Part shown: positions 27,661-61,318 of the stretch, in pieces
Layout: the number at the start of each line of letters is the position of its first letter
Numbering within the stretch: position 1 is the first letter of the stretch
Source: Raillietiella orientalis
Lineage: Eukaryota
Direction of reading: 5' to 3'
NCBI GenBank assembly: GCA_036172245.1
Contig: JAYWIR010000074.1
Location: 186,001 to 250,000 of the forward strand
DNA: 64,000 nucleotides
Made by a program: the position numbers and the translations under genes
The notes under the pieces: generated by a model
Databases searched by the model: none
Told to the model about the DNA's origin: nothing
Seen by the model: only the letters and a program-made list of their open reading frames with translations

Positions 27661-29490
27661 TGACACGCTCTCCTTCACCAATGAAAGTGGGGGCATCCGC
27701 TCCCACGGAATCCGGGGCACTTGCCCTATCGGAATCGGGCGCAACCGCCCCCTCGCAAACCTCTTCGCCATTGGCGAGGAGTTGGAGTGACGTCGTTGCT
27801 GCACCATGCTTGGATGCAGTAGCGGAGCAGACTGCCTAAAAGGACAGCGGCTACAAGCCTTCTCTGACCTATAAGGTAGGCAGTGTGTTTGATGAAAAAA
27901 TTGCACGCTCCTTCGAAATGGAGCTGCAAAGGTTGAACGTGTGAGAGGAAGACCTTTTAGGCCTATCCGTCCTCAGTGGTGGCCAGCGAGTTGAGCTGAC
28001 ATGCAAAGAGGAGAGTCCGGCGCAGCGACTGCTGAACACCCCTCTTACGGTGGACGGCCGCAGGATCTTCCCTGTGACGGAGTACCGCTCAGTCGTGGTC
28101 CACCTCATGGGCGAATTACTCCGAATGGACAAAACTAGCGTCCATGATGAGTTATCGAAGCATAGTAGTCTGCACGCGTATTGGGCCAAACCCAATGTCT
28201 TCCGAACGTACGGAAGGCTATTCAGTGGAATGGCAGCAGTCCGCGTCACCCTACCAGAAAATGGTGGGCTTCCACACAAACTGAATATCGGCGAAGAAAT
28301 AGTCGATGTTTGGTACGTGGCTAAGCCCAAGTATTGTGGACATTGCAATGCAACAGGGCATCTAAAAAAGCGGTGCCCTAACATCCAATGCCACTTATGT
28401 GGAAATAAGGGCCACATCCGTAAGGTGTGCAAAAGAAGAGAAATATCGTCCCCATCCGCTGCCAAAAAGGCAAAGGGGAAACGCACGGGAGAGACGCATA
28501 AACAGAAACAGGCTGTAAACCCCCAGACGCCAGTCCCTATGCCCTCAAAGCAAACGTCGGTTGAGAACAATTCCGACGACGCTGGTGAGGGCGAAGGCTG
28601 GCAGACGGTACAGCCCAGAAGAAAGCCCAGGAGTCCCGAACGAAGCGCGGAAAAAACAAAAACGCAGCGCGAAAATCCGTGCCGCGAGAAAGTTCGCGAT
28701 TGGTCGGTAAAATTAGAGCGTGCGGAGGCACTCCATGCCTCCATCAGGGGAGCAATCTGCCCACTTGCGTCCGCCGAAGCCGCGACGGTCGATGACGAAT
28801 CTTCTGGGGAAACAGAGGGGGAACCGCGCGCCGCGCTCGACGCGATCGAAGGGCCGCCTTCCAGCAGGCGGTGGAAGAACTCGAGGCAGAACTGCAAGGC
28901 CGTGAGAAGAACTTCCGAAAAGGCTGACGAAGGCAGGCCGCGAGGAAGGTTCCGGATGCACGTGACGCCCAACCGGATGCCAGAATTGCGTCCTCATTAA
29001 CATAGGCGCTACCAAACAAGACAAGACGCGAGTCCCAGAATCCCAGAAGGCGCATAGGGATCAAGAAGGAGGAGCATCAACTGGCACCCGAGGGGGAAGC
29101 CGGCAACGTAAGAGCCGAGAGTAGGAATCTCATTTCTCGACACCGTGCAGCTGGCGACCCCCATGGAGGAGGATGTCCAGGTGGGTGAACCCCTACTTCC
29201 TCTACAAGGCCCCGACGACGACTCGTACTCCATGGAGGAAAGAGAAGCGATGCGCGGCGAACCCCCTCCTCTTAGCGTCCCGCCCGACAAGGTGGCGGGA
29301 GCCCCATTGCCAATTTCCCAGGATTAACACCTCGAATCGCCTGTTGATGTAGGATCCGCGTAACCTGCTGGAACGTCAACGGGCTGCGCGATGACGGCAA
29401 CAGGCGGGACACAGCCGACACCATGCGTGACTTCGACCTGGCACTCCTGCAGGAGATCCACGTGATAACCGCGGAGAACGACCAGAAGAT
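27661..29490 (+). mobile_element. Lineage E host, part 1 (ORF1 + start of APE)
   Basis: Knuckles CGHCNATGHLKKRC and CHLCGNKGHIRKVC in ORF 28050-29000; WNVNG...LQEIHVITAE up to 29490. Confidence 0.85.
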
Positions 29491-29823
29491 TTCTCACCCG
29501 GTCACACCAGGGCGTTTATTCCATATAACATAACCTAAAAAGCAATTATACAAAATAAACCAGTTAGGAAACAAACTCCCAACTGACGACTGAACAAGAA
29601 TGAAGAGATTATTACTGGCACGGAGGCCAGAGTAACAGTTTTGCGAACGGTGTGGGGGGGCGTGGAACACAACGAAACCAGATTAAAATAAAAACAATGA
29701 ATAAGGAGGACGGGATAAGGTACTTTGGGATCGCTCTGGAAGACACGGGGATAAAACCACGGGCACCGGAAATTTTACCGAGCGAACGGAAATGGGGTAT
29801 GGGTGGGCGAGAGGTCGCAGGGG

Positions 29824-32800
29824 TCACCGGATTACGCCGTTCTCCTAGGTGTGTAAACCGGTGATGCATGCCGGTGATGTCCTCATTTACCTTGTCACGA
29901 AGATGAGATCACCTTGAAGCCTTCTCCATGAATTGAGCCGCAAGCAAGCGAGCCTCCCTTCGCTGCGCTGACAACTCCAGGGCGTAGCGGGCCTTCAGGA
30001 TGGCGCGAACGCAACACATAATTGCGACAATCGCGCAAACCGAAAGTCCATTTCTACTGAAGAAGCGCCGCAGCACATCAATGGCAGTGCCTCCATGTAG
30101 CATGATGGCCGAAGTGAGCCTTTCCCACAGTTCCAGGAGGTCACTGCAGTACAGCAAAAGTTGCGGAAAATACTCGATCTCTCCGCACCTTAAACAGTTT
30201 GGCAGAGCAGCTCCCCCGGAAACGACGCTTCGCTGCCTATTACAGTGTAATGCACAATGTAAAAAGACCAGCACATCTTGTTTTCGCTTTACGGAGAACA
30301 CAGAGCTGTCCAAACAAACAGGGGTAACCACTATCTCTCCGGGGGGCACACTTGAATGATCGCTCCACCGAAGATGGCCCTTCGCCCGATTCCGAGGAGT
30401 GGCGGCTTGCACCAACTCCATTGTCGTCCAGTTGCCGAGGAGCTTAGTGACTTCCGCTATTTTGCAGTAGAACTCCTATTCCGCCAATAGGCAACCGTCG
30501 TAGCTTGCCCTGAGGGCAGACAGCGCTGCGGCGAGTAGTGTGGCGACCAGACGATCCGACAACTTCTTGTCCTGCATGACTACGTCCATTTGATGACTGA
30601 GGAGAAGTCGCAGGCGTCGAAGATCTTCCGGGCGCGTTCCTTCGAAAGCTGCCCACGATGAAAAAGATTCCTGCCGCCATGCATTCGTGTTAATGTCGCG
30701 GCAGGAGATCCAGCTTTGGGCTTCCAGCAGTGAGGAGAGCTGCCTCAGCGGGAAGCCAAACCCTATTCTGGTGTGCCGAAAGTGGGGTAGCAACGAAAGC
30801 AGTTCCTCGCATCCTGTGCAGCGCCTCAGTATAAGGCGTGCGGCTAAGCACCAAGGCGTGCACCACAGCCTCGCACAGAGCCGCAGCATGCGAAACTGCA
30901 CCTGCAGTTCGATGCTGTTTAAGTCGAGGATGCCCAAGCCTGCATCCTGACGCGGCGCCACCAAGTCTTCAAGTCTAACACGGGATCTTGCAGTGCCCCG
31001 CAACGCTTTGCGTAGAAGGCGCTGCGCCCAGACTTTGACTTCCACGGGGGGTGGACAAACAAAAAACAGGGGGCGGAAGAGGGGAACAACGAACGTTTTT
31101 CAGATGCAGGCCCGTTCCGGCAAGACGAACTTGCCTCCTGAAAACGGGCTAAGTGCACGCTCTGCCTTCCGAAGGCAATCCGACGACGCTTCTGAGATGC
31201 AGAAGTCGCCCAACGGCACGCCAAGGTACCTGAGGTACCTGCCCGTTGGCATCCCCTGGTCGATCCAGACGGATTTCTCCTCCCACGTTGCACCCACCGG
31301 AACAACCATACACATACTCCTGTTAACGTTCACGCAAGCACCGCGACGAATCAACTCGAAGAAGTCTTCAAGCGATGTCGCCGCTTTGGACATGGGCAAC
31401 AGGAGAAGCAGGTCGTCGGCATAGGCTGCCACGGCCGGCGTACCTGGACAGGAGCTCGGTAGGTTGGCTAGCGTCAGCCTGTAAGCCTCCAGCGCCAATT
31501 CAAAATAGATGCTGATAAGCAGCGAACTTAAGCTATCACCCTGCCATATTCCTCGTCGTAATGGCACGCCGTACACGCGACAGCCACTAAAAACAATGGA
31601 TGTAATCGCGAGGCGCCAGCAGGAGCGCAAGTACGCCCACAGGGATGCCGGTAGACCCAGACGTTCGAAAAGCTCCAGAAGAAGCTTTTGGTTCACGCAA
31701 TCGGAAGCTTCGTGCACATCGACTGCAACCAACAAGGCTCCCGGTGTCTCCCTTTGCGTCTCGCGCCTCCGTCGGTGAGAGATCGAAAGCGTCGCTTCCG
31801 CACGACGAACCACCGCCAGACTATTCTGCAATTGCAGCTATGTGCGGATGAACAAGAGATTCGCGTCCATTGACCTCCCGGGAACAGTGAACTTCTGCTC
31901 CGGACTTACCAAGGATTCCGCGATCCTACCCATCAGCGCCACCGAAAGTTTCGAGAATAGCTTGACATCCGAATTCACTAATGTGATCGGACGGCAGTTG
32001 TTCAGTTGGCGCAAATCACCGCCTTTCGTCTGTAGACGCACCTTGGCTAAGCGAAAGGAGGCGGAAACATCGCCCAAGTCTCGCATCAGCGACGAGAGTT
32101 GGAGCACCAGGGGGATGAGTTCCGCCGCAAAACGTTGAACGAATTCCGCGGGGAGCCCATCTTCCCCTGGCGCGTTTCGTCTCTTGAGCCACGAGATGGG
32201 CGAGGAAATTTCCTCTGCCGTGAAGGGCTCATCAAGACGCGCGCGTTCCTCCTCGTCTACAACAGGTGCATCAATCGGCAAAAGCTGCCGGGAGAGGCTG
32301 CGTTTCGTCGGTGCCTCTGCATACAGAGAAGAGTGAAAGCGCTTGACTATCCGTCGCACGTAGGCTGGAGCAGAGCATTCCAGTTCCTGGTCGTCGAGCA
32401 GAACTGTCGCCCCTGACTGCCAGACCTGGCGCTCGGACTTGGCCTTGTACTCGGAGAATCGACCAACGTCCGCGCGCCCTAAAAAGGAGCGGGCATGCAG
32501 AAAATCTCTGCTGTTGGCCACGCCCTCTTCGAAGCCGCGCGGAAGCTGTTGCAAGGGAAACCGGCAGCAGAACTCGCGGACCGATCTTTTCAGATCGTCC
32601 CAGTCCTCAAGCTCACTCATGGCAAAGCCGACAAGCTACTGGCGAAGATGCTTAGCAACCTCCGAGTGGCTTAGCCAGTCTGCCGGCATCCTCCAAAAAC
32701 AGTTTGGAGGCCCCTTGCCTGGCGGGAGCAATTCGAACTCGAGCCTGTTGTGGTCTGAAAGCACGGACGGCACGGGACCTCTCCGACCCACGCGACAGAG

Positions 32801-33416
32801 CAAGTGTTCATCAAGGTATACGTGGTCCGGCGTTGCTTCCATAGCAGGGTCGCTAGCGAACAAGTTGCACGGGTGCACGGACGCGCACATCTCTTTTGCT
32901 TGGAACTTTTCCCTTTTGTGTGATCTATTCTCGGAAAGCAGGTGGACGTTAAAGTCCCCCGCAATGAGATGAGCCACAGTAGGGTGAGATCGAGTGAACC
33001 ACTGGCTTTGAAGGGTACCGTATAAATCAATCCTTTCGGCCCATCGTCTCAGCACCGCTCGGCGCGTACACGTTGGTTACGACAAGGTCGATCGATTCGG
33101 ACCACTTGAGTACAAGCTGTCCCACTCGGCCTTCCGTGTCGAAACGAACGCTGCGCACCGCTCCCGCCAAAGTTCCTCGCACGAGGAAAGCGACGCCGCA
33201 CGTACTTGCAACGCCGCACCTATAAAGCAGGGTTCCGCCAGCGCTCCGTTCGATTTCGGCAGTCTGCTCTTCGGAGATGCTGTGAATCTCCTTCAGGAGC
33301 GTCAACTCGAAGGCGCGCAGAGCGTCAGCCACTAGTCGCCTTTTATCCTCGTGTTGGAGCCCGTTGACGTTTCAAGACGTTACGGCAACACGACGAGAAG
33401 ACGCGATTGCCCTCAT
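29824..33416 (-). pseudogene. Lineage A ORF2 (APE-RT-zinc finger), frameshifted
   Basis: NVYAP, AGDFN, LSDH, PGEDGLPAEF, GIWQGD, AYADD, CLRCG in successive ORFs. Confidence 0.88.
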
Positions 33417-34075
33417 CACGGCTGGGAAAGCGGGGCCGTGGTGCTCGCCTCACCCGGCGAGCGGACAGTAAGCAGCACGACGGGCTGGAGGGCGCGGTCC
33501 TCACCGGCCTAAACTGTGCTGCACGTAATCGGGTGCTCTTCCCCGGGTGCAGAACCTGTGGGTTCCGGGTTGAGCACTAGCCGTTCCGCGGCGAGTGTGT
33601 CACGACTCAGGGCTTCAGCCCTGCGGGCGCTCGCTCCCGCGCGAGTTACGCGTCGTTCAGCTGCGATATCGGACTCCTTTGCGGAGTCTGATGCTCGCAC
33701 GATCGACGTGCGCTTTCATCCGTCCAATTGCACCAGAATGGTCTTCTCGGCGGTCACAGAAGCAGACTTGCACGCGTTGAAGGCGCTGGCTTTTTCCTTG
33801 GAAGAGGCACAAGCCGCGCGTGTTTTCGTATTCCCGCGACTGCTTTTTCCTTTGGAAGAGCTCAGGGATGGATGTTGCGGAGCTATTTTCGGACATATTT
33901 CTTTCCTCCTTTCCACAACCTTCCATTCGCCTTCGCGATTCTCGGAGGTATCCGCGACAGTAGTTGCGGAAACCTCCGGGATTCTCGCTGAGTTCTCTGG
34001 GGGCGTTGCTTTCGCTACGCCTTTGAAAGGAGGCAATGCAGTCACCTTCTTGACAGTCGGGAGATTGCTCCTCTC

Positions 34076-34090
34076 CTGCCGAGTCGGTGA
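34076..34090 (+). repeat. 15-bp TSD, left copy (CTGCCGAGTCGGTGA)
   Basis: Right copy CTGCCGAGTCGGCGA at 39402-39416, one C/T mismatch. Confidence 0.88.
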
Positions 34091-34299
34091 ACTTTTTTCG
34101 CGGCTCAAAGTATTGTGCGCTCGACAATTTAATCAGTTAATTGTGCTCGTGTGTGCCCGGAGAGTGGAAGTTTTCCAGACGAAACTACAAAAGAAGCGGC
34201 GAGGAGAACGCGGCAAAAGACCTGCAGTGGTCCCGTGCAGCAAGACCAGCTGCCAGGATGCAGGCACATAGAGGAGGAGTGGAGAAACCGTCGTCCCCC

Positions 34300-35991
34300 A
34301 TGGAAGCCATGGAGGTAACGTGCGGCAACGGCGAGGCGGTGGCAGGCATGCCGAGGATCGCGCCCGTGGCGGGCTTTGCTGCGCCTGCGGCGGCGATGGC
34401 AAGAGTAGTGCCCGCGGCGGGGAAGGTCGCGCCTGAGGCGGCGATGCCGAGGGTGCCTCCCGCGGCGGCAACGGTGGCGACGTCGAGAGTTGCGCTCGCA
34501 GCGGCTGCGTCCCAGGCAGGACGCGCGGGCGTCCACGCGGTCCAGAGCGAGACACCATCTTGTTCGGCTGCGGCGGCGTAGCCCTTTTCCTATGCGTCGG
34601 TGGCGGCTGGACAAGCGAGTGTCCACCCACCAAGAAAATTTGGGAAGCCGCTATGCGGTAAAGTCCAAAAGGTGTATCGGCCGATCGTGGAGTTAGGGCC
34701 GAATGTGAAGCCCATCATTTTCAAGACTGGGCTCATCAAGTTCAATAATATCAGGGAGGTTTATCTGTCCCTCGATAAAATGGACATGAATTTTGATCGC
34801 ATACAGGCAATCATACCAGCAAACAACGGGTTAACAGTCTTCACAGACTCTGAAAAGATTAGAGAGCGACTGATCCAGAAGGGGATCAATATACAAGGGA
34901 GGATGTTTTGTGGTGTTGGCAAGATGCCATACACAACCGTGTTTCTGATCGGCATCTCCATCCTCACACCGGAACTAACGGTTTAGAACTTTTTGGTGCA
35001 GTATGGGGAAGTTCTGGACCTTGAATTCTAGAACTTCTCTGAAAATATATTATGTATCGAAATGATCGCCAAAACGAAGTTGAAAGAGGGAGCTGTGTTC
35101 CCTGGATTAGCCGTTCTTGACGAACAATCCCAAAGAGTGAACGTGCGTTACCGGCAACAACCGATATTCTGCACCGGGTGCAAGCAGTTTGGCCACATGG
35201 CCGACGCTTGCCCAACGTGTCGTTGTTTCCGCTGCGGCAAAGTAGGACATCAAGTCCAAAACTGTCCGCAGCCGGAGGTGAGCTCCTTCTGCAAGAAACA
35301 CGGACATGCCAAATGGAGCTGTCCGGAGTTTGCAAACTGCAGAAGGATTCGAGGTCTCTCTCCCGTGAGAGAGAGAAACACCAAGGAGGCGGAACAGCCT
35401 CAGAAGGCAGGAAGGCCGAAGAAGGTGAAAGAAGTTGTCCCGGTATCGGAAGACGGCTTCATACAGGTTGGGAAGAAAGGAAAGAGGAGGATGCTCGTCA
35501 AGGAGCAAAAAACCCCACTTATCCTACAAAGTGAAAAGCAAGAAGGCGAGAAGATGGAGGTAGCGCAGGAAGGCGCGAAAGAGGAAATAGCCGAAGCCAC
35601 TTCGGTGTCGCAGGAGGCCCTGCAATCTACGGAGGAGTTGGCATCACTGGCTAATGAAGTCCTAGAGTTGCAGAGCGGTCCCCAGCAAGAGAAAATCTTG
35701 CAGAAGATCTGCAATGCACGGGAGAAGGTCAACAAGGTTGTGAAGGTCACCGAGCACGAAAAGCTAGAGGAACAGCTTCTGGACGTAAAGGCGAACTTTT
35801 GCGCCAAGTTCCAGATAGAGACGCTATCTCGAAAACTAATCGCGCGGGCTGAACACTGGACGGCGGAGGCGGAAGTAACCGATTTCCCCGGAACAGAGAG
35901 TGACGCCGGCAGCGAGGAGCCCGCTGCTACTTCATTGTCTGGAAGAGCACGCTCTCTCAGACATAAGAAGCTCAGGAAGGGCAAGAAATAG
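34300..35991 (+). pseudogene. C ORF1: Ala-rich repeats, three zinc knuckles; contains stops
   Basis: CTGCKQFGHMADAC, CFRCGKVGHQVQNC, SSFCKKHGHAKWSC in ORF 35062-35991; start approximate. Confidence 0.8.
34345..34505 (+). repeat. Degenerate 48-bp (16-aa) coding tandem repeat, ~3 units
   Basis: ATGCCGAGG / ATGGCAAGA / ATGCCGAGG at 34348, 34396, 34444. Confidence 0.7.
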
Positions 35992-36004
35992 GACTTCTCC
36001 TTTC

Positions 36005-39000
36005 ATGACCTCTCCCCTATTGACCGCCAGGAGGCTGCAAATAGCCTCCTGGAATGCAAACGGTATGGTCGACCAAGGAATAAGAAAAAGGATTGTGCGG
36101 ACCATCGCACAACAAGACATAGTGTGCCTGCAGGAGACCCACAAGATGGGTCTCGAGATTATTCAGGAAATGGAACGGCGATTCAACGGGCAGAATTTCG
36201 TCAGCGAGGGAGAACGGAACACGCAAGGTGTGGCGGTGCTAATCAAGAACAACTTGACCCCAACTATTCTGGAAGTGTTCTGTTCCTATCCCGCACGAAT
36301 CATCGGCGTGCGACTGGCCTGATCCGCTACTGTTCATCTCATCCTGGTAAACGTGTACGGGCCGCACAGGCTAAAACATCGTTGTGCGCAGGCGCTGCAT
36401 GCAGCACTCCGTGAAAAGGTTCCTTTCCAAGGACGTCGTGATTGTTGCTGGCGATCTCAACATCTTGGATGAGATCACTCACTCCGAAGACGCCAGAGGA
36501 AGGACGGCGTATCAGCGGTTATCCGACGAGTTCAAACTGGTGTGGCGAACTGCAAGTCACAAGCCGATCGATCACGTCCTGCACAACACCGAACTTGGTA
36601 ACCGCATCCAGGGTTTTCGAGACATTATGACCACGGTGCCCGATCACCCCCTAGTGCGGTTTTTTCTAAGAACGGAGAATCCTCGGCGGAGGCAAGGTAC
36701 CAGGGCGGCGCTCATCAGCATGCTTGCCTGGTTCGAAACCCATCCCGGAAATCAAGCTGTCCTGGAGACGATTCTGAAGGCAACAACAATCCGAAGAGTC
36801 GCCGACTGGGACAGCCTGAAACACAGGATACACCTGTTTGTAAAGATGCAGTTTGGAGATAGGCTCTTGAGGCAGGAGGCGTACCGGGAGCTGAACATCC
36901 AAGATCGCTCACTCTCAAAGTACTTCGATCAGCACGAGAGTGGGTACGTCTTCAAGAACATCAAAGGGGAAGTCGGCGTTCTGAAGAAAAGAAATCTGGC
37001 AACAGATATCTTCTGCATCCAGTACGACGGCCAAAGGCGCCAGTCGTCTGAGGACATGGTGGATGCCTTTCAAAGGCATTACACGAAACACTTTAGGCGA
37101 CAACATCTTTGTCGCTCTAGTCAACAGGCCTCGAGAAGAGGACCGACGATCTCCAGCGGAACAGACTGGAGGAGGATTTCTCCGAAGACGAGGTGAAGAC
37201 TGCGTTTGGTCAAGTACGCAAGGACGTGGCAGCGGGCCCTGACAGCGTACTCTTCACTCACTATCAGCGGAAATTGCATGCCTACCTGCGTTTATTCCAC
37301 CAGTTGACCCTCTGCATCCGCGAAGAAGGAAGACTTCCACAGTCGTTCTACGAGAGTCGGATGAGATTGTTGCCGAAAGGAGGCGACTCCACCCAGATCG
37401 CCCAATGGAGGCCAATCTCGATCCTAAACTCCGATGCCAAGTGGTTGGCGAAGATCTGGTCCAACCGCTTAGGCAAGGTCATGTCGAGGCTGATCTCTCC
37501 GGTCCAGACATGTGCAGTCCCTGAACTTCACATGTCGGACAATGTCAAGTGTGCCCAGGCCACCGTCAGACTCAGCCGATATGTCGACGAGAACCTTGCG
37601 CTGGTGTTCACTGACATGGAGAACGCTTTCCACTGCATCGACCATGGGATGTTGCTTAAGGTTCTAAAAAGCTAGGCCTTCCGGAACACTTCAGCAACTT
37701 CGTGAGGGTGGTACTCCAGAACCAGTATTGCCGAATCAAAATCAACGGCCAGGAGACGGTTGCAATTCGGATGGAACGGGGAGTCCGGCAGGGCGATTCG
37801 CTAAGTCCGATGCTGTTCGTCATCCACATGGAGGCGTTGTCGTCCTTTATCGAGAAGAGCGGACGACTGCAATTCATAACAATCGATGGCCAGCGTCTTA
37901 CCCATCTAGCATGCGCTGATGATCTACTCTTCTTTACCCAGGGAGAGAGAAATCAACGAGCGTTTCTGGATGTGGTAGACGTGATGGATCAAGGCCTGGG
38001 TCTAAAGATCAACGCCCAGAAAAGCCAGCTCTTGCCCGTTGGAATCTTCGATCTCTCCACAATAGCGGAAAGAGGATCCCGAACGGTGGACAAGGTTAAG
38101 TACCTGGGTGTCTACATTGGCGACCTCTCCGCGTCGAAGCTATTGTGGACCGAGATCCTAGGGAAAACGGCCAAGGAAGCAGCCAAGTACACCCGAGCGG
38201 ACCTTGGAATGAAGCTAAAGGCCAACATATGAAACGGAGTACTCCTTCCAAAAGTGCTCTTCGGGGCGGCCTTCGCGAGGATAAACAAGGAAACCACGAG
38301 GGAGTTCGACAAGCTGCAGAGAAAAACACTGTGGGGCAACTATCGCCCAAGAGTCCGACTAAAACCCCTGTGTCGTCCCAGGGGAGAACGCGGTTCCGGG
38401 ATGAAGTCGCTTGTACACTCCATAGAAATCATGGATACGCGACACATCCTGGACATTGCCACTCACTGGGAAGACGGTGCAGAGTTACCCTTCAACGAAT
38501 CCAGGACTGGTAACGAGGAGGGCACCTACATCACACTCGTATACTTAGGTATATAGAGATGATGTTAGGAAGGTTTACCCACATGACTCGCGAAGTGTGG
38601 TTCAATCACAACGACTTTGCATGCTCCAGGGTAACCAAAACAAACCTCCGAAGTCTAATTCAAGAAGAACACAGTGATATTAGTGCCCTCCAGGAAGCCG
38701 CCGGTCGCTACGGGAGTGACCGGATCAACCTGTTAGCGATTGGCACGACGCTCTGGAGGAGTGACCTTCCGCCGGGCACCCAGGATGACCTCCTGATGTT
38801 TTATCATGGAGGAATCTAGAGTGGGTCCCGATTGCAGCACTACACCGGAAGAAGGGAGGATCGAGAGTGCACAGCATGTGGAGACATCGACATGTGACTT
38901 CACGTCTTGACGTTTCCCACATTGCTGCATGACTGGCTGATCCTGAAAAGGATCATCGGACTCTCCACCAGGTCCGTAATGGAGATCCTCGCCGAAATGT

Positions 39001-49622: not shown

Positions 49623-49905
49623 AATAATAATAAACTGGTCAGGGACAATGTCCCCAACCAACAGAACGACAGAGAACATAGAAAAATTACCGCCACGCAG
49701 GCCTGGTAAACAAACCGCTCGCAGCGTGGGGGGAATGAGGGGAAACAAACAAAAATCAAAAACTGGAGGGAAGGGAAAAGGTTTTTTGGTTAGGCTCCGT
49801 ACTCACGGGGATTTAAACGATGAGCACCTCAAATGTTCCGGAGCCTATGGGGACGCGGGTGTAAAAAGAAAATACAAATTTAGTTTATGGAGGGTAGGGC
49901 AATGA

Positions 49906-52900
49906 TCACCGGGTTGGCCGCTGATGAGGGTGTGTAAACCGGCGGTGTATTGCGGCGAAATTCCTCTTTGTCTCCTCTATCAAATGAGGCCATCTAGCGG
50001 ATGCTCCCATGTAGAAGGATGCTTTGCTGATTACCTCTTGGTACTGTCCGTTGATTACCAACGCCTGGCGGACGGAAACTATCGCGCGTATGCAACCGAT
50101 GGTTGCAATCCTTGCGCTTACTGAAAGCCCGCTCGGCGTGAAGAATCGTCGCAGCAAGTCTCTTGCGGTGTCCACGGGATGCAATAGTGCTGTTGCCAGC
50201 CTACGCCACAGTCCTTGTAGGACACCGCAGTCCAGAAGTAGGTGCGGAATCGACTCCTTCGATCCGCACCGAACGCAGTTCGCAGACGCAAGTCCCCCGG
50301 AGTCACGATGCCAACGCTCGTTGCACTGAAAACCCCAGTGAACGAAAAGCAGCACGGCTTGTTTCCAAGCAAGGGGGAGCAGCGAACTGTCCATACACTG
50401 TGGAGGGACTACAAGTTCTTCGGGGGTGACAGCAAGTTCTTCTGCCCACCGGAGAAGTCCCTTTGCAGTAGCACGAGGAGTGGCGGCGTCCGCCAACTCA
50501 CTTGTCTTCCAGGTGCCAAGGAGTTTGGTTCTTCCCGCTATCGTGCAGGAAACCTCCCACCTCGCCGGTTGGTAACTGTCGTTTCTTGCCCTGAGGGCAG
50601 ACAGCGCTGCGGCAAGAGGCGGGGCAGCCAGGGTAGAAAACTTCACCTCGTCCTGCAGTACTTCTTCCAAGGATCGTGGAAAAAATTGGCGCAGGGGGCG
50701 AAGATCTTCAGGGCGTATTCCTTGGAACGCCGCCCAGGATTCAACAGACTCCTGCCGCCAAGCTTCAAAGTTCATTGGGCGGCAGGAGATCCAAGAGTGT
50801 GCTTCCAGAAGTGCGGTCAACTGCCGCAATGGAAACCTGAAACCCCGCTTCCTGTATTGAGTGCCCGGCAAAAGCGAGAGAAATCCTCCGCTGCCGGCGC
50901 ATCTCCGCAGGAGAATGCGAGCTGGCACACACAGGGGGGAGGTCCATAGCTGGGCACACAGTGCCAGCAGTCGGAACTGCACCTGCAGTCCGATTCGCTC
51001 CATTGTCAGGATACCCAAACCAGCATCCCGACGCGGAGCTGACAAATCTTTAAGGCGGATCCTGGATCTCGCCGGACCCCAGAGAGCGTTCCTGAGCAGG
51101 CGCTTAGCCCGCTGTTTTGCCGCATAGGGGGGGTCCAAAACAAAAAACAGGGGCCGGAGGAGGGGGGCCACAAAGGTGTTCCAAATAGTCGCCCGTTCCT
51201 GCAAGGTAAACTTGCCGTTAAAGAACGGGCTGATGGCCAACTCTGCTTTCTGAAGACAGTCCGCCCACGCTCCGGCTGCGCCGAAAGCGCCCAACGGAAC
51301 GCCAAGGTACTTAAAGTACCCGCCCGTGGGGATCCCCAGGCGGATCCAGTCGGACTGCCCCTCCCACGACGTACCCACAGGAACGACCACGCTCTTCTCT
51401 CTGTTCACGCTCACGCCCGCTCCTCGACGAATCAGGTCGAAGAAATCCTCGACACTGGACGCCGGGGTGGACATGGGGAGCAGAAGAAGCAGGTCATCAG
51501 CGTAGGCGGCCACGGCAGGCGTTCCCGGGCAGGAGCTTGGCAAGGGAGACAGCGTCAGCCTGTATGCTCTTAGCACCAACTCAAAGAAGATGCTGAAGAG
51601 CAACGGGCTTAAGCTGTCGCCCTGTCGGATGCCCCTACGAACGGGAATACCATACGCGCGGCAGCCGCTAAAAGTGATGCAGGTTAGCGCGTGGCGCCAG
51701 CACGCGCGCAAATACAGCAGGAGTTGCGCCGGGAACCCAAGGCGTTCCATAAGCTCCAAAAGCAGCTTCTGGTTTACGCAGTCGAACGCCTTGGGGAGAT
51801 CGACCGCGACCGCCAAGGCACCTGGCGTTCCCTCCTGCCGTCGGCGCCTGTTCTTTTTGCCTGCGGCAGTGACTTTCGCAGCAGCCTGGCTTTGCTGCGC
51901 CACAACTTCCTGCAGCTGCATCCATGTACGCGCGAAAAGGATGTTCGCCTCCATGGATCGTCCCGGAACCGCGTAGGTTTGTTCCGGGCTCACCACAGAT
52001 TCCGCGATTCTTCCTAACCGCGCGACTCACAGCTTGGAAAACAACTTGACGTCCGAGTTCACCAAGGTGATCGGACGCCAGTTGTTAAGTTGGCGCAAGT
52101 CTCCGCCTTTCGGCAGGAGACGCACCTTCGCTGAGCGGAAGGAATCAGGGACATTCCCGGATTCACTCATCAGCGTCGCGAGTTTCAGCATCAAAGGAAT
52201 GAGCTCCACTGCAAAGCACTGATAAAACTCTGCAAGAGCCCATCCTCGCCTGGCGCCTTTCGTCTCTTCAGCCCAGCGATGGCGGACGAAAATTCATCCG
52301 CCGTGAAGGGCTCGTCGAGACGTTCGCGTTCCTCCTCGCCGACAACACGAGCATCCTGAGACAGGAGTATCTCAGAAAGAATATCCTCCGTCGGGGAATC
52401 CGCGTAGAGCGAGGAGTAGTAGCGTCTCACAATGCGGCGTACTTCGGCTGGGGCCGAACATTCCTGGCCTTTGTCGTCCAACAGGCATGCTGCTCCGGAC
52501 TGCCAGACCTGGCGCTCGGCCCTCGCCTTGTACTCTGCGAGACGCCCGACATCCGCGCGTCTCGAAAACGTGCGGGCCTGCAGAAAGTCTCTCCTGTTGG
52601 CCACGCCCTCTCCGAAACCGCGTGGAAGCCGGTGCAAGGGGAATTGGCAGCAGAACTCGCGGACAGATCTTTTGAGATCGTCCCAGTCCGCAAGTTCTTG
52701 AATGGCAAAGCCTCGGAGGTATCCACGTAGATGCTCCGCAGCCTCCGGTTGGCTAAGCCAATCTGCCTGCATCCTCCAGTTTTGCAACGGAGGCCCCCTG
52801 CCTGGCGGAAGGATCTCAAACTCCAACCTGTGGTGGTCAGAAAGCCTAGTCAACAATCTTCCTCTCCTGCCCACACGCGAATGCAGGTTTTCATCGAGGA

Positions 52901-53498
52901 AAACGTGATCGAGCGATCTTTCCATTCCAGGTTCGCTGACCATCAAGTTGGCGGCGTGCACGGACGCGCACATCTCGATGGGCAGCGCGCGTTCCCTCGG
53001 GCGGCTCCAATCGTCGGAGAGCAGGCGGACGTTGAAGTCCCCAGCGACGAGGTGCGCCACTTGGAAACCGGAGTTATTGAGCCAGTGGCTCTGCACCTCA
53101 CCAAAGAAAGCTACTCTTTCTTCGAGGTAGCGAGAGCCACTCGGCGCGTAGACGTTCGTAACGACGAGATCGATGGACTCGGACCACTTGATGACAAGCT
53201 GGCCTATCCGTCCGTTGTCATCGAAACGAACACTGCGCACCGCTTCCGCCATTTTTCCTCTTACGAGGAACGCGACGCCGCACGTGTGTGCGCCGCCGCA
53301 CCGCCAATGTAGCGTTCCGCCTGCGCGCTCCTCGATTTCGGCTGCCTGCTCGTCGGAGATTACGTGAATCTCCTGCAGCAACGCGAGGTCGAAGGGGCGC
53401 AGGGCGTTGGCTACTAATCGCCTCTTCTCGTCGTTCTGCAGTCCGTTCACGTTCCAACACGTTACGGACAGACGACGAGAAGACGCGATTCCCCGCAT
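49906..53498 (-). pseudogene. B1 ORF2 (~1200 aa APE-RT-zinc finger); one frameshift (~52235) and one TGA (52027-52029)
   Basis: ORFs 52191-53498, 52027-52209 and 49906-51996 join into one protein: WNVNG, LQEIH, NVYAP, GDFN, LDH, SDH, WRPITLVNSDVK, GIRQGD, YADD, KYLG, CVRC...H...C. Confidence 0.93.
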
Positions 53499-53503
53499 TA
53501 CTG

Positions 53504-55444
53504 CTAAGAAGGTGGCGGCTTTTTGCTCGCTTTATCCGGCGAGCAGACGGCGAGCAGCACGACTGGCTGGAGGGGACGGTCGCCACCGTCCTCTGTCGTG
53601 CTGCATGCATGTAATGCTTCCACGCCAGGCTGAACCCCGTCGGGTTTCGTGGAGACTTCGCGTGGCTTCGCGGCGAGCGTTGCCTGGCTGCCTACTTTTG
53701 ATCGGCGCGCACACGCTTTCGAACGAGTTGTCCTCTTCTCGGTGATCGGAACGGCATCCATTTCGGAGTCCGACCGGCGCATGTTCGATCGGATTTCGGC
53801 CTTCCGCGAAGCAGTGACAGGTTCTGCTGGATTGACAGCTGTCCTGTTTTCGTTTTCCGTCACCAGGGCATCGCTTTTGGTGACGGCTGCTTTCCCGGCG
53901 CGCGCGTTTTCCGCGTGCTCACGCGCAGTTGCACGAGGGACCTTTGCTGAAGTCTTCTTTACTTCATTACGGTTCCTCACTTCGCGTGGCGCCGTAAATG
54001 GAGATTGTGCTCCATGGCCATCTTTGAAGCCATCCGCGTCTTTGGACGGGAGCCCTTTCGATGGCTCCGACACGCTCGTCATGGACGCTGCTTTCGGAAG
54101 GGCTTTTAATCCCTTCGTTGGCATGGCATCCGCGCCAGTCGAGAGCTTGCTCTCCGACTGCGACGGCGTGAGATTTTTGTCCGCTTTCGCGGTGTTGGAT
54201 CGCGACGCGGATTTTTTTTTTGCCGACTTTCGAAGTCGACACGGCACAACCCTTCTTACCCGATTTGGGCTTCTCAGCACTGCAGGAGGTGAAGGAATCG
54301 ATCTGACGGTACTGGAAATGTCCTTACCGCCGTTGTCCATTGACGTCCCCGCCGGTTGCTCGAACTCCGAAAGAGCCGGGCGTGCTTGGGAAGGACAGCT
54401 ATTGCGCCTAGGGGGACTTACCATTGCCCCGGATTCCCCGCACCCTTTCTTTTGCGGCTCCCCTGCCGCGAGAGGGGGTGCGCAGGGCTTCGCGTGCGAT
54501 GTTTCCTGCTGCTTTGGGGCGACATTCCGCCTCGCGTTTTTACCGAATTTCTGCCGTGGGGTCTCCAGGTTTTTCGCAGATTTTTTCTTTTTATCCGCGC
54601 TTTGTTTTTTAAAATTGAGCTCCGCGGCTGCCTTTTTTCGCAAAAGATCCGGGCAATTTTTCAATTGGTGCCCGGATAGTTTGCAATAACGGCATTTTCC
54701 AGAGGGGCATTTATCCAAACAATGCCCCTCGTTCCCGCATTGCTCGCACGTTTTTACTTTGCCCACGAACCACAGGTGAACGACCGTGTCATTCACCTGT
54801 AGTTTGGTAGGCAGCAGACGGCGGTCCGGCATTGTAAGCCGGACTCCAGCGACTCCGCTGTGTATGGACGGGAAGTCCTTGAGGTTGCTACGCACCCTCC
54901 ACAGCGCATGGACCGTGGCGAATTTCGCCAACGCGTTCCGAATATCAGTATCGGAGATTTCCGACTCGATGTCGAAAATCTCCACCACAAATGAGTCGTC
55001 CATGGCGGCCGGGAAGACCTTCTGGCCACGGATCGACAACGGGGTGCGCAGCAAACGTTGCACAAGTGCAGCGTCTTTGCAACGCACCTTGAAATAGCCC
55101 ATGTCTTTTACGGGCATAATGGCGAGAAGGTCCTCCTCCCGCACGCCAACACGGGTCAGTTCATCGTTGAACTGATTCCCGTCGCGCGCAGAACGAAAAC
55201 CACTCACCTTATATCGGAGAGCAGGTCTATAGCCTTGGGCTACGTATGCCCGCAACTCCGACTCGTCGAGTGGTTTCCCTTTGACGGCTGCTGTGGCAGC
55301 AACGTCAGCAAAACTCCTCTCCATTGGCGAGAAAGACGAAGTGGAGGCGGCCGTCGGTTCCGCGATTGCAGATCCGGATGCTGTTCCTCCAACTTCAGTA
55401 GCTTCAAGTTGGGTCGACATCGTCGTCAAAATGTACGACGCCAA
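53504..55444 (-). CDS. B1 ORF1, 646 aa, nucleic-acid-binding protein with two CCHC knuckles and a long low-complexity tail
   Basis: Open frame; CEQCGNEGHCLDKC and CRYCKLSGHQLKNC. Confidence 0.9.
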   Translation of the reverse strand: MASYILTTMSTQLEATEVGGTASGSAIAEPTAASTSSFSPMERSFADVAATAAVKGKPLDESELRAYVAQGYRPALRYKVSGFRSARDGNQFNDELTRVGVREEDLLAIMPVKDMGYFKVRCKDAALVQRLLRTPLSIRGQKVFPAAMDDSFVVEIFDIESEISDTDIRNALAKFATVHALWRVRSNLKDFPSIHSGVAGVRLTMPDRRLLPTKLQVNDTVVHLWFVGKVKTCEQCGNEGHCLDKCPSGKCRYCKLSGHQLKNCPDLLRKKAAAELNFKKQSADKKKKSAKNLETPRQKFGKNARRNVAPKQQETSHAKPCAPPLAAGEPQKKGCGESGAMVSPPRRNSCPSQARPALSEFEQPAGTSMDNGGKDISSTVRSIPSPPAVLRSPNRVRRVVPCRLRKSAKKKSASRSNTAKADKNLTPSQSESKLSTGADAMPTKGLKALPKAASMTSVSEPSKGLPSKDADGFKDGHGAQSPFTAPREVRNRNEVKKTSAKVPRATAREHAENARAGKAAVTKSDALVTENENRTAVNPAEPVTASRKAEIRSNMRRSDSEMDAVPITEKRTTRSKACARRSKVGSQATLAAKPREVSTKPDGVQPGVEALHACSTTEDGGDRPLQPVVLLAVCSPDKASKKPPPS

Positions 55445-55480
55445 GATGAAGCGGATGAAAGCACGGAGACGAGAGCGAAG

Positions 55481-55491
55481 AAAAACACGTC
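55481..55491 (-). promoter_or_regulatory. Conserved 5'-end motif GACGTGTTTTT (candidate internal promoter element)
   Basis: Recurs close to the 5' end of ten elements in the window; function inferred. Confidence 0.55.
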
Positions 55492-57810
55492 CGCACTCGA
55501 TTGAAATCTCCCGCTATCAGGTGAGCCTTTCGTACATTGGTATCCGCCAGCCAGTCACGCTTCAGGGTTTCTAGCAGCCAGGTGAGGTAGCAATACCCTT
55601 GTTTGCCGCTGGGGCAATGCACGTTTTTGACGATTAGGTCAATCGATTCGGACCAGCTCAGAATCAGCTGACCGATCCGAGCGTCCTCATCAAACCGCAC
55701 GCCCTTTACGGCAGCGTCGATGGCTGGCTTGACAAAGAACGCGACCCCGCAGGTGTTGCGGACGCCGCACCGCCAATACAACCGACCCCCCGCGATCGTG
55801 TCGATCTACTGGGCGTCTGCCGCGGTGATCACATGGATCTCCTGCAGCAGGGCCAGGTCGAGCTCACGCAGGGTGTCGGCCGTATCTTGTCTGTTGCCGT
55901 CGTCGCGCAGCCCATTGACGTTCCAACAGGCCGCGCGAATTCGACGGCGCCTGGCGAGCCCAGCTGTTAGCCCTTGGAAAACGGCGATGCGGCGTCCGCC
56001 ACCTGCTGGGGCGGGACGCTAGCAGGAAAGAGAAAGGTGACAGGTACTGAAGGCACCTGTTCCTCCTCCTCCATCGGTGGCGGCGCGTCGGCCGGATCAC
56101 CGGGAGGTGTAGTCACGCCTATCTGTTCGCCCTCCTCCATGGGTTCGGGCTGCTCAGGTATCGCGACTGCAGGGAGGACTTCGCCCCCTGCTCATGTCCT
56201 CCATGGGGGTGGCCGACTTGACGGCTTCCGGGTGTGGGTGTTCCCCCTCTGGGATTTCCATGCTGCCGCTTCCTTCCAGCTTTTCCTCCTCGCTGGTAGA
56301 GGGGAGGCGCCTCCTGGGTTTCTGGGACTTGCGTCCCTACTTCCTGGGGGGTGCCTCCGAGGAGAAGGATGAGCTTTTGGCCCCCAGGTCGCACTCACCT
56401 GCGGGGGCCTTCTTCGTCGGAGCTGACCTGCGTACGCCCTTGCGCGACGGGGTTTCGCACTCGGCGAGCGTTGCTGCGAGCTCCTCCTCCGCTTTCTCGA
56501 AGCCCGCGTCTTCGCCAGCGGCGACGGTTGCCGCGGGCTGCTCCGCGACCTTATCGAGGGCGGCGTCATCGCTGTTTTGCGGACATTGCCGCGGGCGGCC
56601 TCGGCAGGAACGGCTAAACTTTCCAGTGCCACCGAGCATTCGCGGAGTTGTTTCTTTGAAAGCGGTGCAGCTTTTTTCTTTTTGCCGACAGTTTTCTTCT
56701 CCGACTTTTCTCCTGCCATCACTTTCTTTGTTTTTCCTTTTCTGGCCTGAACCAGCTGTTAACCCTTCTCCATCCCCGCGTCCACGGGAGCTCTTTCCTC
56801 CGACGCCTGCACGGGAGGAAAGGAGGCTGTCAGTTGGGAACGGCCATTTTCGCGAACTACTCTTTCTATTAGCTTTCCACGTTTTCCCTGCGCCTTTTTG
56901 GCGGCAGGGGGCACCGGGATAGGGCGCTTTGGGCACACGCGCCGAACGTGACCCTTTTCCTCGCATAGGAGGCACACAATGTTCGGGCACCTTTTTCGTA
57001 GATGCCCTACTGCATTTCAGTAGCCACAAAATTTGCGTTTCACCTCTTACCAGAGGTCCACCGCTTCTTGGCAGACCTCCAGCTTGTGGGGAAGCGCACC
57101 ACCCTTTTTTACGGTGATACGCGCCGCAGCTCGACCTCCGAAAATGCTATTGTAGCCTTGGAAAATCGTGGACTACGGCCACAACGCGTGCACTTCTGCG
57201 TGCTTTTCTAACTGCTCGCGAACCGCTGACCTAGTCATGCGATTGGAGATCCCAGTGAGATGGACCACCACCGAGCGGTCCATCGTCACCGGCAAGATCT
57301 TTCAACCATCAACGATCAGCGGGTCGGTGATCAGGCGTCGGGCAAAGGTGATATCTTTGCATACCACCTCGACCCGCTGCCCGTCGCTGAAGACAGAGAG
57401 GCAGTTAGGATTTTTTTCGAAGATATTGGCGTTCTGCAGCGCCTTCTTAAAGGCGTGTGCAGTTCGCGCATCAAAAAGGTTGCCTAACTTTTAGACTAGC
57501 GAGGGTTTATACCCCGCTTTCTTGTAGGCTTCCATCTCAACCATGGCTTTCACGCTAGGCGCGGCCACCATGGCGCTCCATGACCTCGGCGTCGCCGGGG
57601 ACGATTCCGGGGCGGATGCTTCTGATTCAGTAGGCTGTGGGGACGAACTAGCCTACCCCACGCCTACTTATATCGCGGTGTCCTCTGGCAACGCTGCCAT
57701 CGGACACCGACGATGTGCACGCACAAACCACTCAGCAAAAAACCACTCGCCTTGCCACGCAGGCGGAGCGCAAAAAAAGCACGTCTTCTCTCCACAGAGG
57801 GGATTTGGAG

Positions 57811-58392
57811 TTGCCACCCGGGTACGCCCGGCGCGTTTATTTATAAAAACTCTACAATCGCGGTACCAGGCCCCGCTCACGGCCTTATGCACGGGACCTA
57901 CCGGGACGCCGGGACGCAGCCCGGCGTGGCACTCCCCTACAGCGAAAGGGGATGGGGTAAAACAAAAATAAACACAAAAACGCAAACAAACAAAAGAGGT
58001 TGGAGGGAAGGGAAGGGATCACTGTTCGCTGAGAGGAGGGCCCATCCGTTGAAGGAAGCATTCGAGGTCCATCCGAATATTCCCCAGTTGGGGCCATCCA
58101 GCAGCTCTCTGCAAGAAGCGTTGGGCTTCCATCTCGGCAATGGCTTCTACGCTAGGCGCGCCCACCATGGCGCTTCATGACCTCGGCGTCGCTGCGACGA
58201 TTCCGAGGCGGATGCCCCTGATCCAGTAGGCTGTGGGGACGAACAAGCCTCCATACGCCTACTTTCATCGCGGTGTCCTCTGGCAACGCTGCCATCGGAC
58301 ACCCACGATGTGCACGCACCAACCACTGAGCAAAAAACTACTTGCCTTGCCACGCAGGCGGAGCGCAGAAAAAGCACGTCCTCTCTCCACAA
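57811..58392 (-). mobile_element. ~580-bp internally deleted lineage F derivative with both termini
   Basis: 58127-58392 matches the F 5' end (57527-57797); 57811-58126 matches the F 3' end (41493-41811); flanked by 13-bp target copies. Confidence 0.88.
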
Positions 58393-61318
58393 AGGTGATT
58401 TGGAAAAGGGTCTTGCTACAAAAAGGCGTATTTGCACGCCCGTCGTTTCGCAAGGACCCCTGACGTCCGTCGCTTGGCGAAATACAAAGCCGAAGCCGAG
58501 CGTCAAGCATGGCAAACAGGACCGCCCAGCGTGCTGGACTATTTGGACCAGGAACACTTGAAGCCGGCTTCGATACGTCGCCTCTTGACGGATTTTACTC
58601 CTCTCTTTACGCAAGGGCACCTGCGGAGTAGGACGCTTCGCGGCGCCTGCTCCCAGATGGAGCCACGGCCATAGGGGAGGAGGAAATAAAAAGCATCGAC
58701 GAGCCTTTTACGTCCGGTGAAATCATCACCGCGATTAAAAGGCTTGAAGGGCGTAAGGCGCCTGGGGAGGACGGCCTGCCGGCGGAGTTCTTTCAGATCT
58801 TCGTCGCAGAGCTGACCCCCCTGGTGCTCAAATAGACATCGCTGATCCGACACCAAGGCGATATTCTTTCCTCGTTTCGGTCAGCCAGGGTGAGGCCCCT
58901 TCCTAAGGGAGGAGACCTCAGGAAATTAAGCAACTGGCGTCCGATCACGATAGTGAACACGGACGCCAAGTTGCTGGCCGGACTGTGGGCTGCGCGACTG
59001 GAACAGGTAGCTGACAGCTTCGTCAGCCCGGAACAGACGTACGCTGCTCCCGAGCGAAGCATGGAAGCGAACCTGTTCTTCTCCAGCACTTGATTCAACC
59101 TTGAACAGGAAGAAAAAGAGAAGAAAAAAGAACAAAATGACTACAAACCTAATTTGGGAACGCCAGCACGGCAAACAAGGGACTGCCGGGAAGGGAAGGG
59201 TGCTTTAGCGAGCGCAGTCGATCTCCACAAAGCTTTCGACTGCGTGGAACAGGAACTCCTTTTGGAGCTCCTAGATCGCATAAGCTTCCCGAACCCTTTA
59301 GTGGCTTACCTGCCCGCCTGCTGGCGCAACGGAATCATTAAGGTATCTTTTAGAGGACAGCATGTGTTCGGCGTACCGGTGAGGCCCGGCATCCGGCGGG
59401 GCGACAGCCTGAGTACCCTACTCTTCAGCACCTATTTCGAAGTGGTGCGGAGACCATACAGGGTGACATTGGCTGCCCTGCCAAGCTCGTGTTTAGGTAC
59501 ACCGGCCGTACGCTCACGATCTTTTGCTCCTGCTGCCAATGTGTGCCCCGGCTTCGGCAGTCGAAGATTTCTTCGAATTGTTGAGCCGTGGGACAGGACT
59601 ACAGGTGAACAGGACGAAGTCATCGCTGGTTACTGTTGGTGCTACGTGGGCAGAACGACCTGATTCGATCCGCTTGGGGATCCACACGGACAGGTACTTC
59701 AAGTACCTCGGCGTTCCGTTGGGAGACTTCTGTCAGTCAGAAGCCTGGTCAGTTTGTCTCCAAAAAGTGGAGTAAGCGATTGGCCCGTTCCTGGAAGGCA
59801 AGCTATACTTTCCGGAACGGGCCGCGGTGTGGAACGCGATCGCAGCCTCCCTCCTTCGCCCTCTGCTTTTTGTTTGCCCCGTACCCGGTGAACTGAAAAA
59901 AAGAACAAAGGACCAACTACGCATTGCCCTGTGGGCGGCAGGGGGCCTCGTGTGCCTTTAAACGATTTGTGCGCTCCACGTCGGGACGGAGGTCTTAGCG
60001 TCCTCACGATGGAGCGAATGGAAACACAGCTGCGGTGGCGCACTCTAGCCATCGTAGCGAAAATGTGGAACACCCCTTGATGCGTTTCAGCGCGCCTTCT
60101 TGCTAGATGTGTGTCCAAGACTGAAGGACTTGCGTCTTTTCTTCTGTGATACGGCCGGAAAATAAGAAGATGCGGACTTCTCCTGGGACGCATGGTTACC
60201 CTGGCAAAGGAGAACGGGTGGATGGCCTGCAGCCCCGCCAACTCCAGCGCATGGCTGGAAGAAACATTTGGAACGTGGGCAAAGATGAAACACATCAGTG
60301 GAGAATGCTGCAACGGCCTGCGCTCCGGCATCTAAACCCGCTGCACGCTGCGGAACATGATCGAGTGTCCAGCCAGAAGCACTTGGGCGGAGATGACTCC
60401 ACTGGCAACGGCTCTGCCCTTCCTACGAAGGGCGCTTCATAACAGCCGCAAGCCGAGATGGCAAGTCTCCTGCCGGATAGCGGGCAAAGAGAAGGATCTG
60501 ACTGGGTGGACCATAAGGGAGCTGGCTAACGCCGCGACCCTAAGAGTTCACCCGCATGGACTACGAAGATGGGGCGAGCTGCTTGGCATCACGACGGATG
60601 ACCTAGAGTGGCCCCCGTCGTTAATTGATTCATCCATCGTTTCCCTGAAGTGGCAGAATTCGGCGCTGTTGTTGTTGCACTGGGGTCTTCCCTGCAACGC
60701 GCGCCGCCACCACTGGACGTGGGGGAATGTTAAACAGAACTGTGCAGTGTGCGGGGAGAAGGAATCCCTCCCCCATCTGTTAGTAAACTGCACTGCCCTC
60801 CGGCCCTTTTTGGAACATTTTGCTACGAACCTTTCAATGCCGAAAGGCAGCACCCCCAGAGACGTTATGAGACTCCTCTTCGTGCGACACGCCCTGACAC
60901 CAGCCTCAGCCCTGGCAGCACTTTGTGGCCACCCAGGGATTGTGGCCGCGTGGAGCGCAGCCAGCAGAGGAAGCAGCGACAGGGATCCCATCGTACACGC
61001 TGGTCGATACCTGCGAATCGCGATCGGCTGGTCCCATCTGGGAACAATGCAGAGGGACATCGAGGGCATCCTCGAAAGGATGGTCTCTTCCTCCAGCGGG
61101 CTGTGATCCCTTCTGGTCCCTCCAAATAATTTCTTTTCGTTTATTTCTTTTATTTTTCTTTTTGTTTTTACCCCGTACCCCCTCCGCTGCCGAGGGAAGT
61201 CATGCCGGCATGCGAGTTGGCTTCCCATCAGGTCCAAAGAACTATTTACCGTAGCGGGGCCTCTTACCGCGAAAACATAGTGTTTAGCAATAAACTTCCC
61301 GGCGTGACCGGGTGAAAA
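58393..61318 (+). mobile_element. Lineage E host, part 3 (linker, RT, zinc finger, 3' end)
   Basis: Resumes at the GFG linker; WRPITIVNTDAK, DLHKAFD, KYLG, CAVC...H...C; terminus 61289-61318. Confidence 0.85.

Follow-up and report, generated by a model that had tools for sequence, protein, structure and literature searches.

An E-family LINE spread over 34 kb by nested insertions of related LINEs in Raillietiella orientalis, each family probably aiming at its own site

We analysed 64,000 bp of DNA from Raillietiella orientalis (positions 186,001 to 250,000 of contig JAYWIR010000074.1, assembly GCA_036172245.1; hereafter the window, in whose numbering positions are given), and in particular a decayed long interspersed element (LINE) of a family that we call E, which extends from 27661 to 61318 with other LINEs nested inside it. 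Self-comparison and Pfam assign LINE pieces, whose families are denoted by letters, to 63,960 of the 64,000 bp. The typical build is a first open reading frame (ORF1) with CCHC knuckles and a second (ORF2) with an apurinic endonuclease (APE) domain, a reverse transcriptase (RT) and a C-terminal CCHC; codon numbers are those of the ORF2 frame of the copy B1. The ORF1 zf-CCHC is present in C, E, E2, D1 and B1, reaching the Pfam cut-off in C only. The APE lies at the N terminus of ORF2 (PF03372, E=1.5e-13), its closest solved structures are L1-EN and L1-EN chimeras, and that of B1 contains the motifs WNVNG, LQE, GDFN, DH and SDH. The RT gives RVT_1 matches and has a YADD motif, zf-RVT at the C-terminal CCHC falls below cut-off, and no RNase H domain was matched among the 56 ORFs scanned. 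It is by this domain build (APE plus RT) that the elements are of L1/Tx1 type.

E is preserved as three forward-strand pieces. Piece 1 (27661..29489) is 5′-truncated and contains ORF1, with its CCHC knuckle, and the start of ORF2 (APE codons 6-66). Piece 2 (40763..41491) covers APE codons 62-307, with the target site duplication (TSD) of element A at its start and that of element F (41480-41491) at its end, while piece 3 (58393..61318) opens with an F TSD copy (58393-58404) and continues through the linker, the RT and the C-terminal CCHC to a 3′ end with AATAAA and a hairpin, and no poly(A). An earlier note on this stretch had placed these boundaries with an error of no more than a few bases. 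Joined after removal of one TSD copy per site, the pieces form a collinear LINE of 5,461 bp, in which the ORF2 codons covered (6-66, 62-307 and 304-1183) leave no gap. A 5.5 kb element is therefore spread over 34 kb by seven related LINEs inserted in it and in one another. A second E copy, E2 (61319..63772, forward strand), also 5′-truncated, abuts the E 3′ end. The earlier note took its APE to be uninterrupted, and it is indeed intact at the A site, but E2 is interrupted elsewhere by an F-type 3′ end, which cuts it (63773) at the same nucleotide as E.

Between pieces 1 and 2 lies A, antisense in E and itself split by C. The 3′ part of A (29490..34087, reverse strand) holds the end of ORF1, the whole of ORF2 and the 3′ end, and finishes with a copy of the C TSD (34076-34087); the 5′ part (39402..40762, reverse strand) holds the 5′ end and ORF1 and carries the second C TSD copy (39402-39413), identical to the first at 12/12 positions. 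C (34088..39401, forward strand; 5,314 bp, with a 250-bp internal deletion at 38475) belongs to a distant LINE family and is antisense in ORF1 of A.

Between pieces 2 and 3 lies F, also antisense in E. Its 3′ part (41492..43603, reverse strand) runs from the RT KAFD motif to a 3′ end 89.6% identical to that of a neighbouring short copy, mini-F, and its 5′ part (55501..57797, reverse strand) runs from a 5′ end 90.3% identical to mini-F through ORF1 and the APE to the GDFN codons. D1 (43604..48124, forward strand), antisense in F at the KAFD codons, has an intact 5′ end and lacks its last ~990 bp. It meets B2 (48125..49585, reverse strand) at a deletion junction (48124..48125) with 3-nt microhomology; B2 is the 5′ 1,461 bp of a B copy, 96-97% identical to B1, with a ~110-bp internal deletion. 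B1 itself (49593..55500, reverse strand) is full length at 5,908 bp, lies in the same sense as F and is inserted at the APE GDFN codons. The 7-bp spacer between B1 and B2 (49586..49592) is identical at 7/7 positions to the F flank at 55501-55507, a regenerated target, and the two are tandem copies at one site. Mini-F (57810..58392, reverse strand), an internally deleted F made up of 267 bp of 5′ end and 317 bp of 3′ end, stands in tandem with F across a 12-bp target copy (57798..57809). The F site thus has three target copies, of which the middle one matches the outer copies at 10 and 11 of 12 positions and the outer pair match each other at 9/12.

The F 5′ part breaks off at the GDFN codons (55501) and the 3′ part begins only at the KAFD codons (43603), so that ~411 codons of F are gone. 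D1 ends at codon 935, fused to the middle of B2 ORF1. One deletion at 48124|48125, of at least ~6,555 bp (987 of D1, ~1,233 of F and 4,335 of B2), accounts for the loss of the D1 3′ end, the F centre and the B2 3′ part. The two F parts are assigned to one family because mini-F holds both ends at 90%. A single F copy is the simplest reading, and two tandem F copies with a larger deletion are possible.

According to the earlier note, host frames resume at each TSD. This is so at the three sites tested in the nest, where, with one TSD copy removed, the reading frame is stop-free across A in E, across F plus mini-F in E and across C in A. It is not so for F, whose centre went in the deletion that also took the D1 and B2 3′ ends; on this event that note was silent, as it was on a 99% identical tract in E and E2 and on the probable origin of the nest from family-specific target sites. 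The TSDs are similarly mixed: 12/12 for C in A and 9 to 11 of 12 at the F site, 6/11 for A and, for E itself, none, the best match being 6/16. The 5′ motif GGACGTG, which the guests of E keep, is missing from E, whose left edge is therefore a truncation or a deletion junction. That edge (27660|27661) lies 15 bp past the F site of a D copy, D0, and the E|E2 join (61318|61319) has no target copy; E2 or D0 may have been the host of E, one flank being deleted later.

Do the three pieces belong together? The APE part of piece 1 is 83.6% and piece 2 is 83.4% identical to E2, and E stands beside F in both of the APE trees that contain F (support 97). Piece 3 had to be placed by tree because the window holds no second E-type RT; it too stands beside F in two of the three RT/C-terminal trees, that of RT 720-930 (97) and that of the C-terminal part (96), and at 63-73% identity to F it is not itself F. 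Weighing on the other side, the RT 585-715 tree leaves E with F unresolved (supports 69-70). We rejected piece 3 as a continuation of D0, since the two differ over the codons they have in common and D0 clusters with D1. Lesions occur at an even rate in the pieces, with 1 in 56, 4 in 241 and 10 in 871 codons. Collinearity, frame, trees and even lesion density all fit one E-family LINE cut up by nested inserts.

The earlier claim of one E element over ~34 kb is thus upheld as regards a collinear E-family LINE spread over that distance. Origin from a single physical copy is likely rather than shown because, with fixed targets, recombination between two E copies by way of a guest common to both would produce identical junctions. 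Such a mosaic of two or more E copies, rebuilt by recombination between guests, would look like an intact host with junctions in frame, the landing sites of A and F being constant, and F could likewise be two copies joined. The left A target duplication (29479..29489, forward strand) agrees with 40763-40773 at only 6/11 positions (P ~0.03 for that many mismatches at 17% decay, and also ~0.03 for that many chance matches), and the right copy resembles a D-type flank (13/15 to the copy D′), so the A 5′ half could come from another locus. A mosaic would also suit the missing E TSD, the tract common to E and E2, which would be an exchange between E copies, and the deletions that join unrelated pieces at 48125, 6699, 16947 and 22900. 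We nevertheless think it unlikely, given that pieces 1 and 2 lie at the same distance from E2, lesions are evenly spread, the F TSD copies agree as expected for decay (P=0.33 for 9/12), and both A and C keep both ends, with a perfect TSD in the case of C.

The tract in question (28598..29161, forward strand) is 564 bp long and 99.1% identical to E2 62164-62727, with 5/564 mismatches against 209/1,166 outside it (p=6e-32; flanks 82%). It is the only such tract in the 12 pairs scanned. Within it, E and E2 have three in-frame ORF1 stops in common, upstream of an ORF1 end that is present in both, and the sequence that was copied had therefore already decayed. We infer either gene conversion or a merge in the assembly. 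Error of the latter kind, with similar copies merged or misjoined, could account for the tract, and perhaps for the D1|B2 junction or how the blocks are ordered, and both the repeat-only nature of the region and the sharp edges and 99% identity of the tract are what it would give. We regard such error as very improbable: most copies differ by 7-25%, the tract itself contains 5 differences, and TSDs and frames close over inserts of 11-17 kb, which misjoins are not expected to restore.

Public sequencing data bear on this only at the margin. Of three runs listed, one contains the stretch (0.29 of words), and no RNA run among those listed contains it. All three consist of short contigs, no piece of which spans the nest, and none of the 15 joints listed, of 36, falls between 41491 and 58405; one joint, between the D1 A site (45481) and a B/A-type 3′ end, was left uncounted because its short side is only 28 letters long. 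In run X1, three contigs cover the nearly intact B1 at ~99% identity. One has a 1-base insertion at the B1 frameshift and extends 28 letters into the F flank, below the bar of 31 letters set for bridging. A relationship between run X1 and the source sample is possible, and the run lends the order of the nest no independent support.

Containment establishes that E preceded A and F, that A preceded C and that F preceded D1 and B; B2, in turn, predates the deletion that cut it. B1, being nearly intact, was probably the last arrival. The nest fixes neither the order of A and F, nor that of F and mini-F, nor that among C, D1 and B2. The earlier note read the nesting as a chronology that divergence should follow. 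ORF2 stops and frameshifts per 100 codons are 1.28 in E, 0.58 in A (7 in 1,202 codons), 1.18 in F, 0.48 in C (3 in 630), 0.76 in D1 and 0.17 in B1 (2 in 1,207 ORF2 codons); pooled by tier from outer to inner, they are 1.28, 0.81 and 0.44 (outer versus inner p=0.005, or p=0.11 when B1 is left out). The host is more decayed than its guest in 5/5 pairs within the nest and 7/9 in the window, and the guest is the more decayed, not significantly, in the other two. F versus B1 is the only significant pair of the nine (p=0.005). The direction therefore accords with the earlier note, and significance is confined to contrasts with B1. B1 is, as claimed, the least decayed copy, but it is not uniquely innermost, C, D1, B2 and B1 all being in the third tier. 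It should be borne in mind that B1 is the reference frame, which may slightly favour it in the lesion count, though comparison with an outside protein, P0001, reveals only the same two lesions. Our conclusion from these results is that the nest and its partial order are real, while the claims of clean TSDs and of a divergence clock were overstated.

The coding capacity of B1 is nearly complete: ORF1 is open, and ORF2 has one frameshift (~52235) and one TGA (52027-52029). This TGA, its sole ORF2 stop, lies at a Trp codon, and TGA also occurs there in Bp and J (8000-8002 and 16305-16307), the nearest relatives of B1, whose RTs have diverged under selection despite the common stop. The site may be a hot spot at which the copies decayed in parallel, or they may have inherited a read-through or a split ORF2. 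Stops at Trp columns number 12 TGA, 5 TAG and 5 TAA of 63 aligned stops, and stops recur in unrelated copies too; a reading of TGA as Trp is not supported.

The insertion points recur. In the window we count 14 host-guest events (2-4 per family; the H host is an uncertain 86-bp fragment), none in the body of the guest's own family and 12 of them antisense. A enters E and D′ at the same nucleotide after the APE QEIH motif, with 5′ junctions in register; B enters F and D′ at the GDFN codons, with 3′ ends in register and TSDs of 7/7 and 16/16; C occupies a single ORF1 position in A, A′ and A″, and in Bp a position like it; F enters E and E2 at the same linker nucleotide; and D uses the KAFD motif in both F and G, with one end visible in the first and the other end, ~15 bp off, in the second. 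The chance of one same-nucleotide pair is ~3e-4. An excess of third-position differences in A/A″ (p=3e-4), C/C″ (p=1e-4) and E/E2 ORF1 (p=0.01) suggests that these hosts and guests diverged as active lineages, and divergence is greater between the ends of F and F″ (77% identical) than between E and E2 (83%), with p=0.045 for mismatches and p=3e-4 for gaps. Three tandem pairs (F/mini-F, B1/B2 and A/A″) have a target copy between them, while E/E2 abut without one.

Several observations weigh against independent, targeted insertion. The F/F″ comparison lies in gap-prone untranslated sequence. E piece 2 versus E2 has no third-position excess (p=0.33), and the stretch therefore leaves room for a duplicated E+F composite. 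A/A′ (92.9%) and C/C′ (93.8%) are equally diverged, and may together represent a single composite that was duplicated or converted. Some targets lie outside conserved blocks, the conservation percentiles being 95 (B), 85 (G), 69 (D), 50 (F), 39 (H) and 36 (A), and the few events per family all come from one window. Events are clearly independent between different host families, as they are in A/A″ and C/C″; the case is weaker for E/E2, and for A′/C′ there is none. As an observation in its own right, the A 5′ half with the C 3′ end is present twice at 93%, at 1-1792 (in a D host) and 38987-40777 (in E), with similarity extending ~15 bp into the flank; this composite may have been duplicated, converted or co-mobilised.

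One could dispense with targeting altogether and suppose a permissive region in which old composites, spread by segmental duplication or co-retrotransposition, repeat the junctions. The equal divergence of A′/C′ and A/C (93%, without codon bias) and the lack of such bias in E piece 2 versus E2 are compatible with this. The same sites are, however, used in different host families (E/D′, F/D′ and F/G) that are 55-69% alike and diverged under selection, and the two B TSDs differ in length (7 versus 16 bp), so that we give this explanation very little credence. We consider it probable that sibling LINEs invaded a decayed E-family LINE, the members of each family aiming at a short site of their own in the ORFs of other families. 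The APE of a family would nick its own target sequence, and the RT would copy the element RNA, from the shared AATAAA-hairpin 3′ end, by target-primed reverse transcription. Insertion would make a 7-16 bp duplication that regenerates the target, so that a second copy could land in tandem, as in F/mini-F and B1/B2; nests would deepen because each new copy carries fresh targets. A deletion of at least 6.6 kb later fused D1 to B2, and the 564-bp tract would later have been copied between E and E2.

A more tentative idea, which we hold to be possible though doubtful, is that the targeting network is closed, each endonuclease reading the site of rival LINEs and sparing its own lineage by codon choice, with loops of host and guest. 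At the B site the codons are GAT-TTC-AA in D1, D′, F and E2, GAT-TTC-CA in E piece 2, and GAC in B1, Bp, A and G; D0 has GAC there although it belongs to the D side. At the A site they are CAR-GAG-AT-like in D, E and F and GCY-GAA-AT in A, B and G. Members of such a loop would be B into D, D into G, and G into the B-related J. If true, this would be a rock-paper-scissors community of LINEs building its own genomic island and containing several naturally retargeted APE endonucleases. In L1-EN, a beta-hairpin shapes target choice (PMC1950540); it aligns to a stretch that differs between the families here, which makes that stretch a lead as a candidate target determinant. Close relatives with different landing sites, among which B1 is nearly intact, offer a test system for APE target change.

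Known systems provide partial parallels. The L1 LINE Zepp in Coccomyxa C-169 forms LINE-only clusters of nested copies of 1.5-42.3 kb (PMC3446292), and clusters of ZeppL-1, an L1 LINE of Chlamydomonas, are ascribed to a nested mechanism targeting existing copies (PMC8226300). The present cluster is likewise nested and LINE-only. Zepp arrays, further characterised as centromeric with a single cluster on each chromosome, are described as consisting mainly of 5′-truncated 3′ ends of one element, whereas here at least seven lineages insert into other families, none of the 14 events is into a same-family body, 12/14 are antisense and 7/8 nest elements have a 5′ end. Tx1-clade LINEs prefer sites in other transposons (Tx1 in Tx1D, Tx1-Mar in Mariner-N4_AMi, Tx1-8_Crp and Tx1-4_AMi in long terminal repeat (LTR) elements), with an orientation fixed per site and tandem copies around the TSD, an arrangement also seen in SINEU-3 (PMC4494074), and Tx1L-EN nicks its target almost exclusively, a case of sequence-specific APE nicking (PMC1950540). 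The elements here resemble them as APE LINEs with a target-sequence preference and TSDs (same nucleotide for A, B, C and F, same motif for D). They differ in that Tx1-clade targets, as described, are DNA or LTR transposons, RNA genes and microsatellites, while the targets here are coding sequences of sibling LINEs, hosts are also guests, and the RT is far from sampled relatives. Celine, a centromeric LINE of poplar, frequently inserts into other transposable elements, with a unique TSD per copy (PMC11288735), and plant LTR elements form many-copy nests in which 3′ untranslated regions are preferred and coding regions seldom hit (PMC6911290); here each family reuses one site inside ORFs. By analogy, the system would work like Tx1-clade target-specific LINEs and build clusters like Zepp. 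Literature searches outside subscription journals, Repbase and the primary Zepp papers turned up no account of LINE families that have fixed sites in the ORFs of their siblings. As for the use of nests as clocks, containment here gives a sound partial order and divergence a weak clock. Fixed targets, deletions and copied tracts are the reason for that weakness, and the reason why in-frame junctions are no proof of a single host copy.

In the family trees A, B, G and J form one group and D, E, F and H another, C being remote from both. For the B1 RT, a metagenome protein at 56% identity is the one close full-length relative. In the RT search 2/11,380 matches reach 1e-30, and the rest are 24-39% identical among the 150 matches listed; by structure, R2-type and L1 RTs match nearly equally. 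A metagenome scan with P0001 returned 7 loci, all distant (22-35% identity), with one 28-residue segment at 61%. The window has 55% GC and a CG observed/expected ratio of 1.00, hence no CpG depletion and no signature of methylation or of the repeat-induced point mutation type.

A poly(A) tail is a typical feature of L1. The nine 3′ ends found by pattern here (10426, 12296, 18266, 29490, 41492, 49593, 57810, 61318 and 63773) carry 0-5 A after the AATAAA-hairpin motif. This ~30-nt 3′ end (AATAAA plus a GC hairpin) and the 5′ GGACGTG (common to most families, with 8 matches in the window) are found in families only 55-75% alike in ORF2, a pattern that may allow cross-mobilisation between families. 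In most of 10 ends the hairpin folds no better than shuffles (z -2.08 to +0.32), and an Rfam search gave 0 matches at gathering score.

The rest of the window has similar structures. A second, cleaner three-tier nest occupies 1777-12296, where D′ holds Bp (TSD 16/16, frame resuming) and Bp holds a C copy; D′ is antisense in G, and G antisense in J. An internal deletion of D′ ends, at 10554, at the RT KAFD codons, the D target site, and may be a repaired cut or a lost self-insertion. J (16150-18266) is a chimera, its RT 72% identical to B1 and 67% to A and its C-terminal part 82% to A, joined by a deletion near 16947. H (22997-25215) is seemingly a mosaic, F-like in RT 585-720 (74%) and D-like further on (69%), and its decayed 3′ end is inserted antisense into a fragment of an APE, close to codon 281, possibly a further target site. 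Finally, a C copy contains a ~220-bp direct duplication (5842-6061 and 6485-6703, 88%) beside the deletion junction at 6699.

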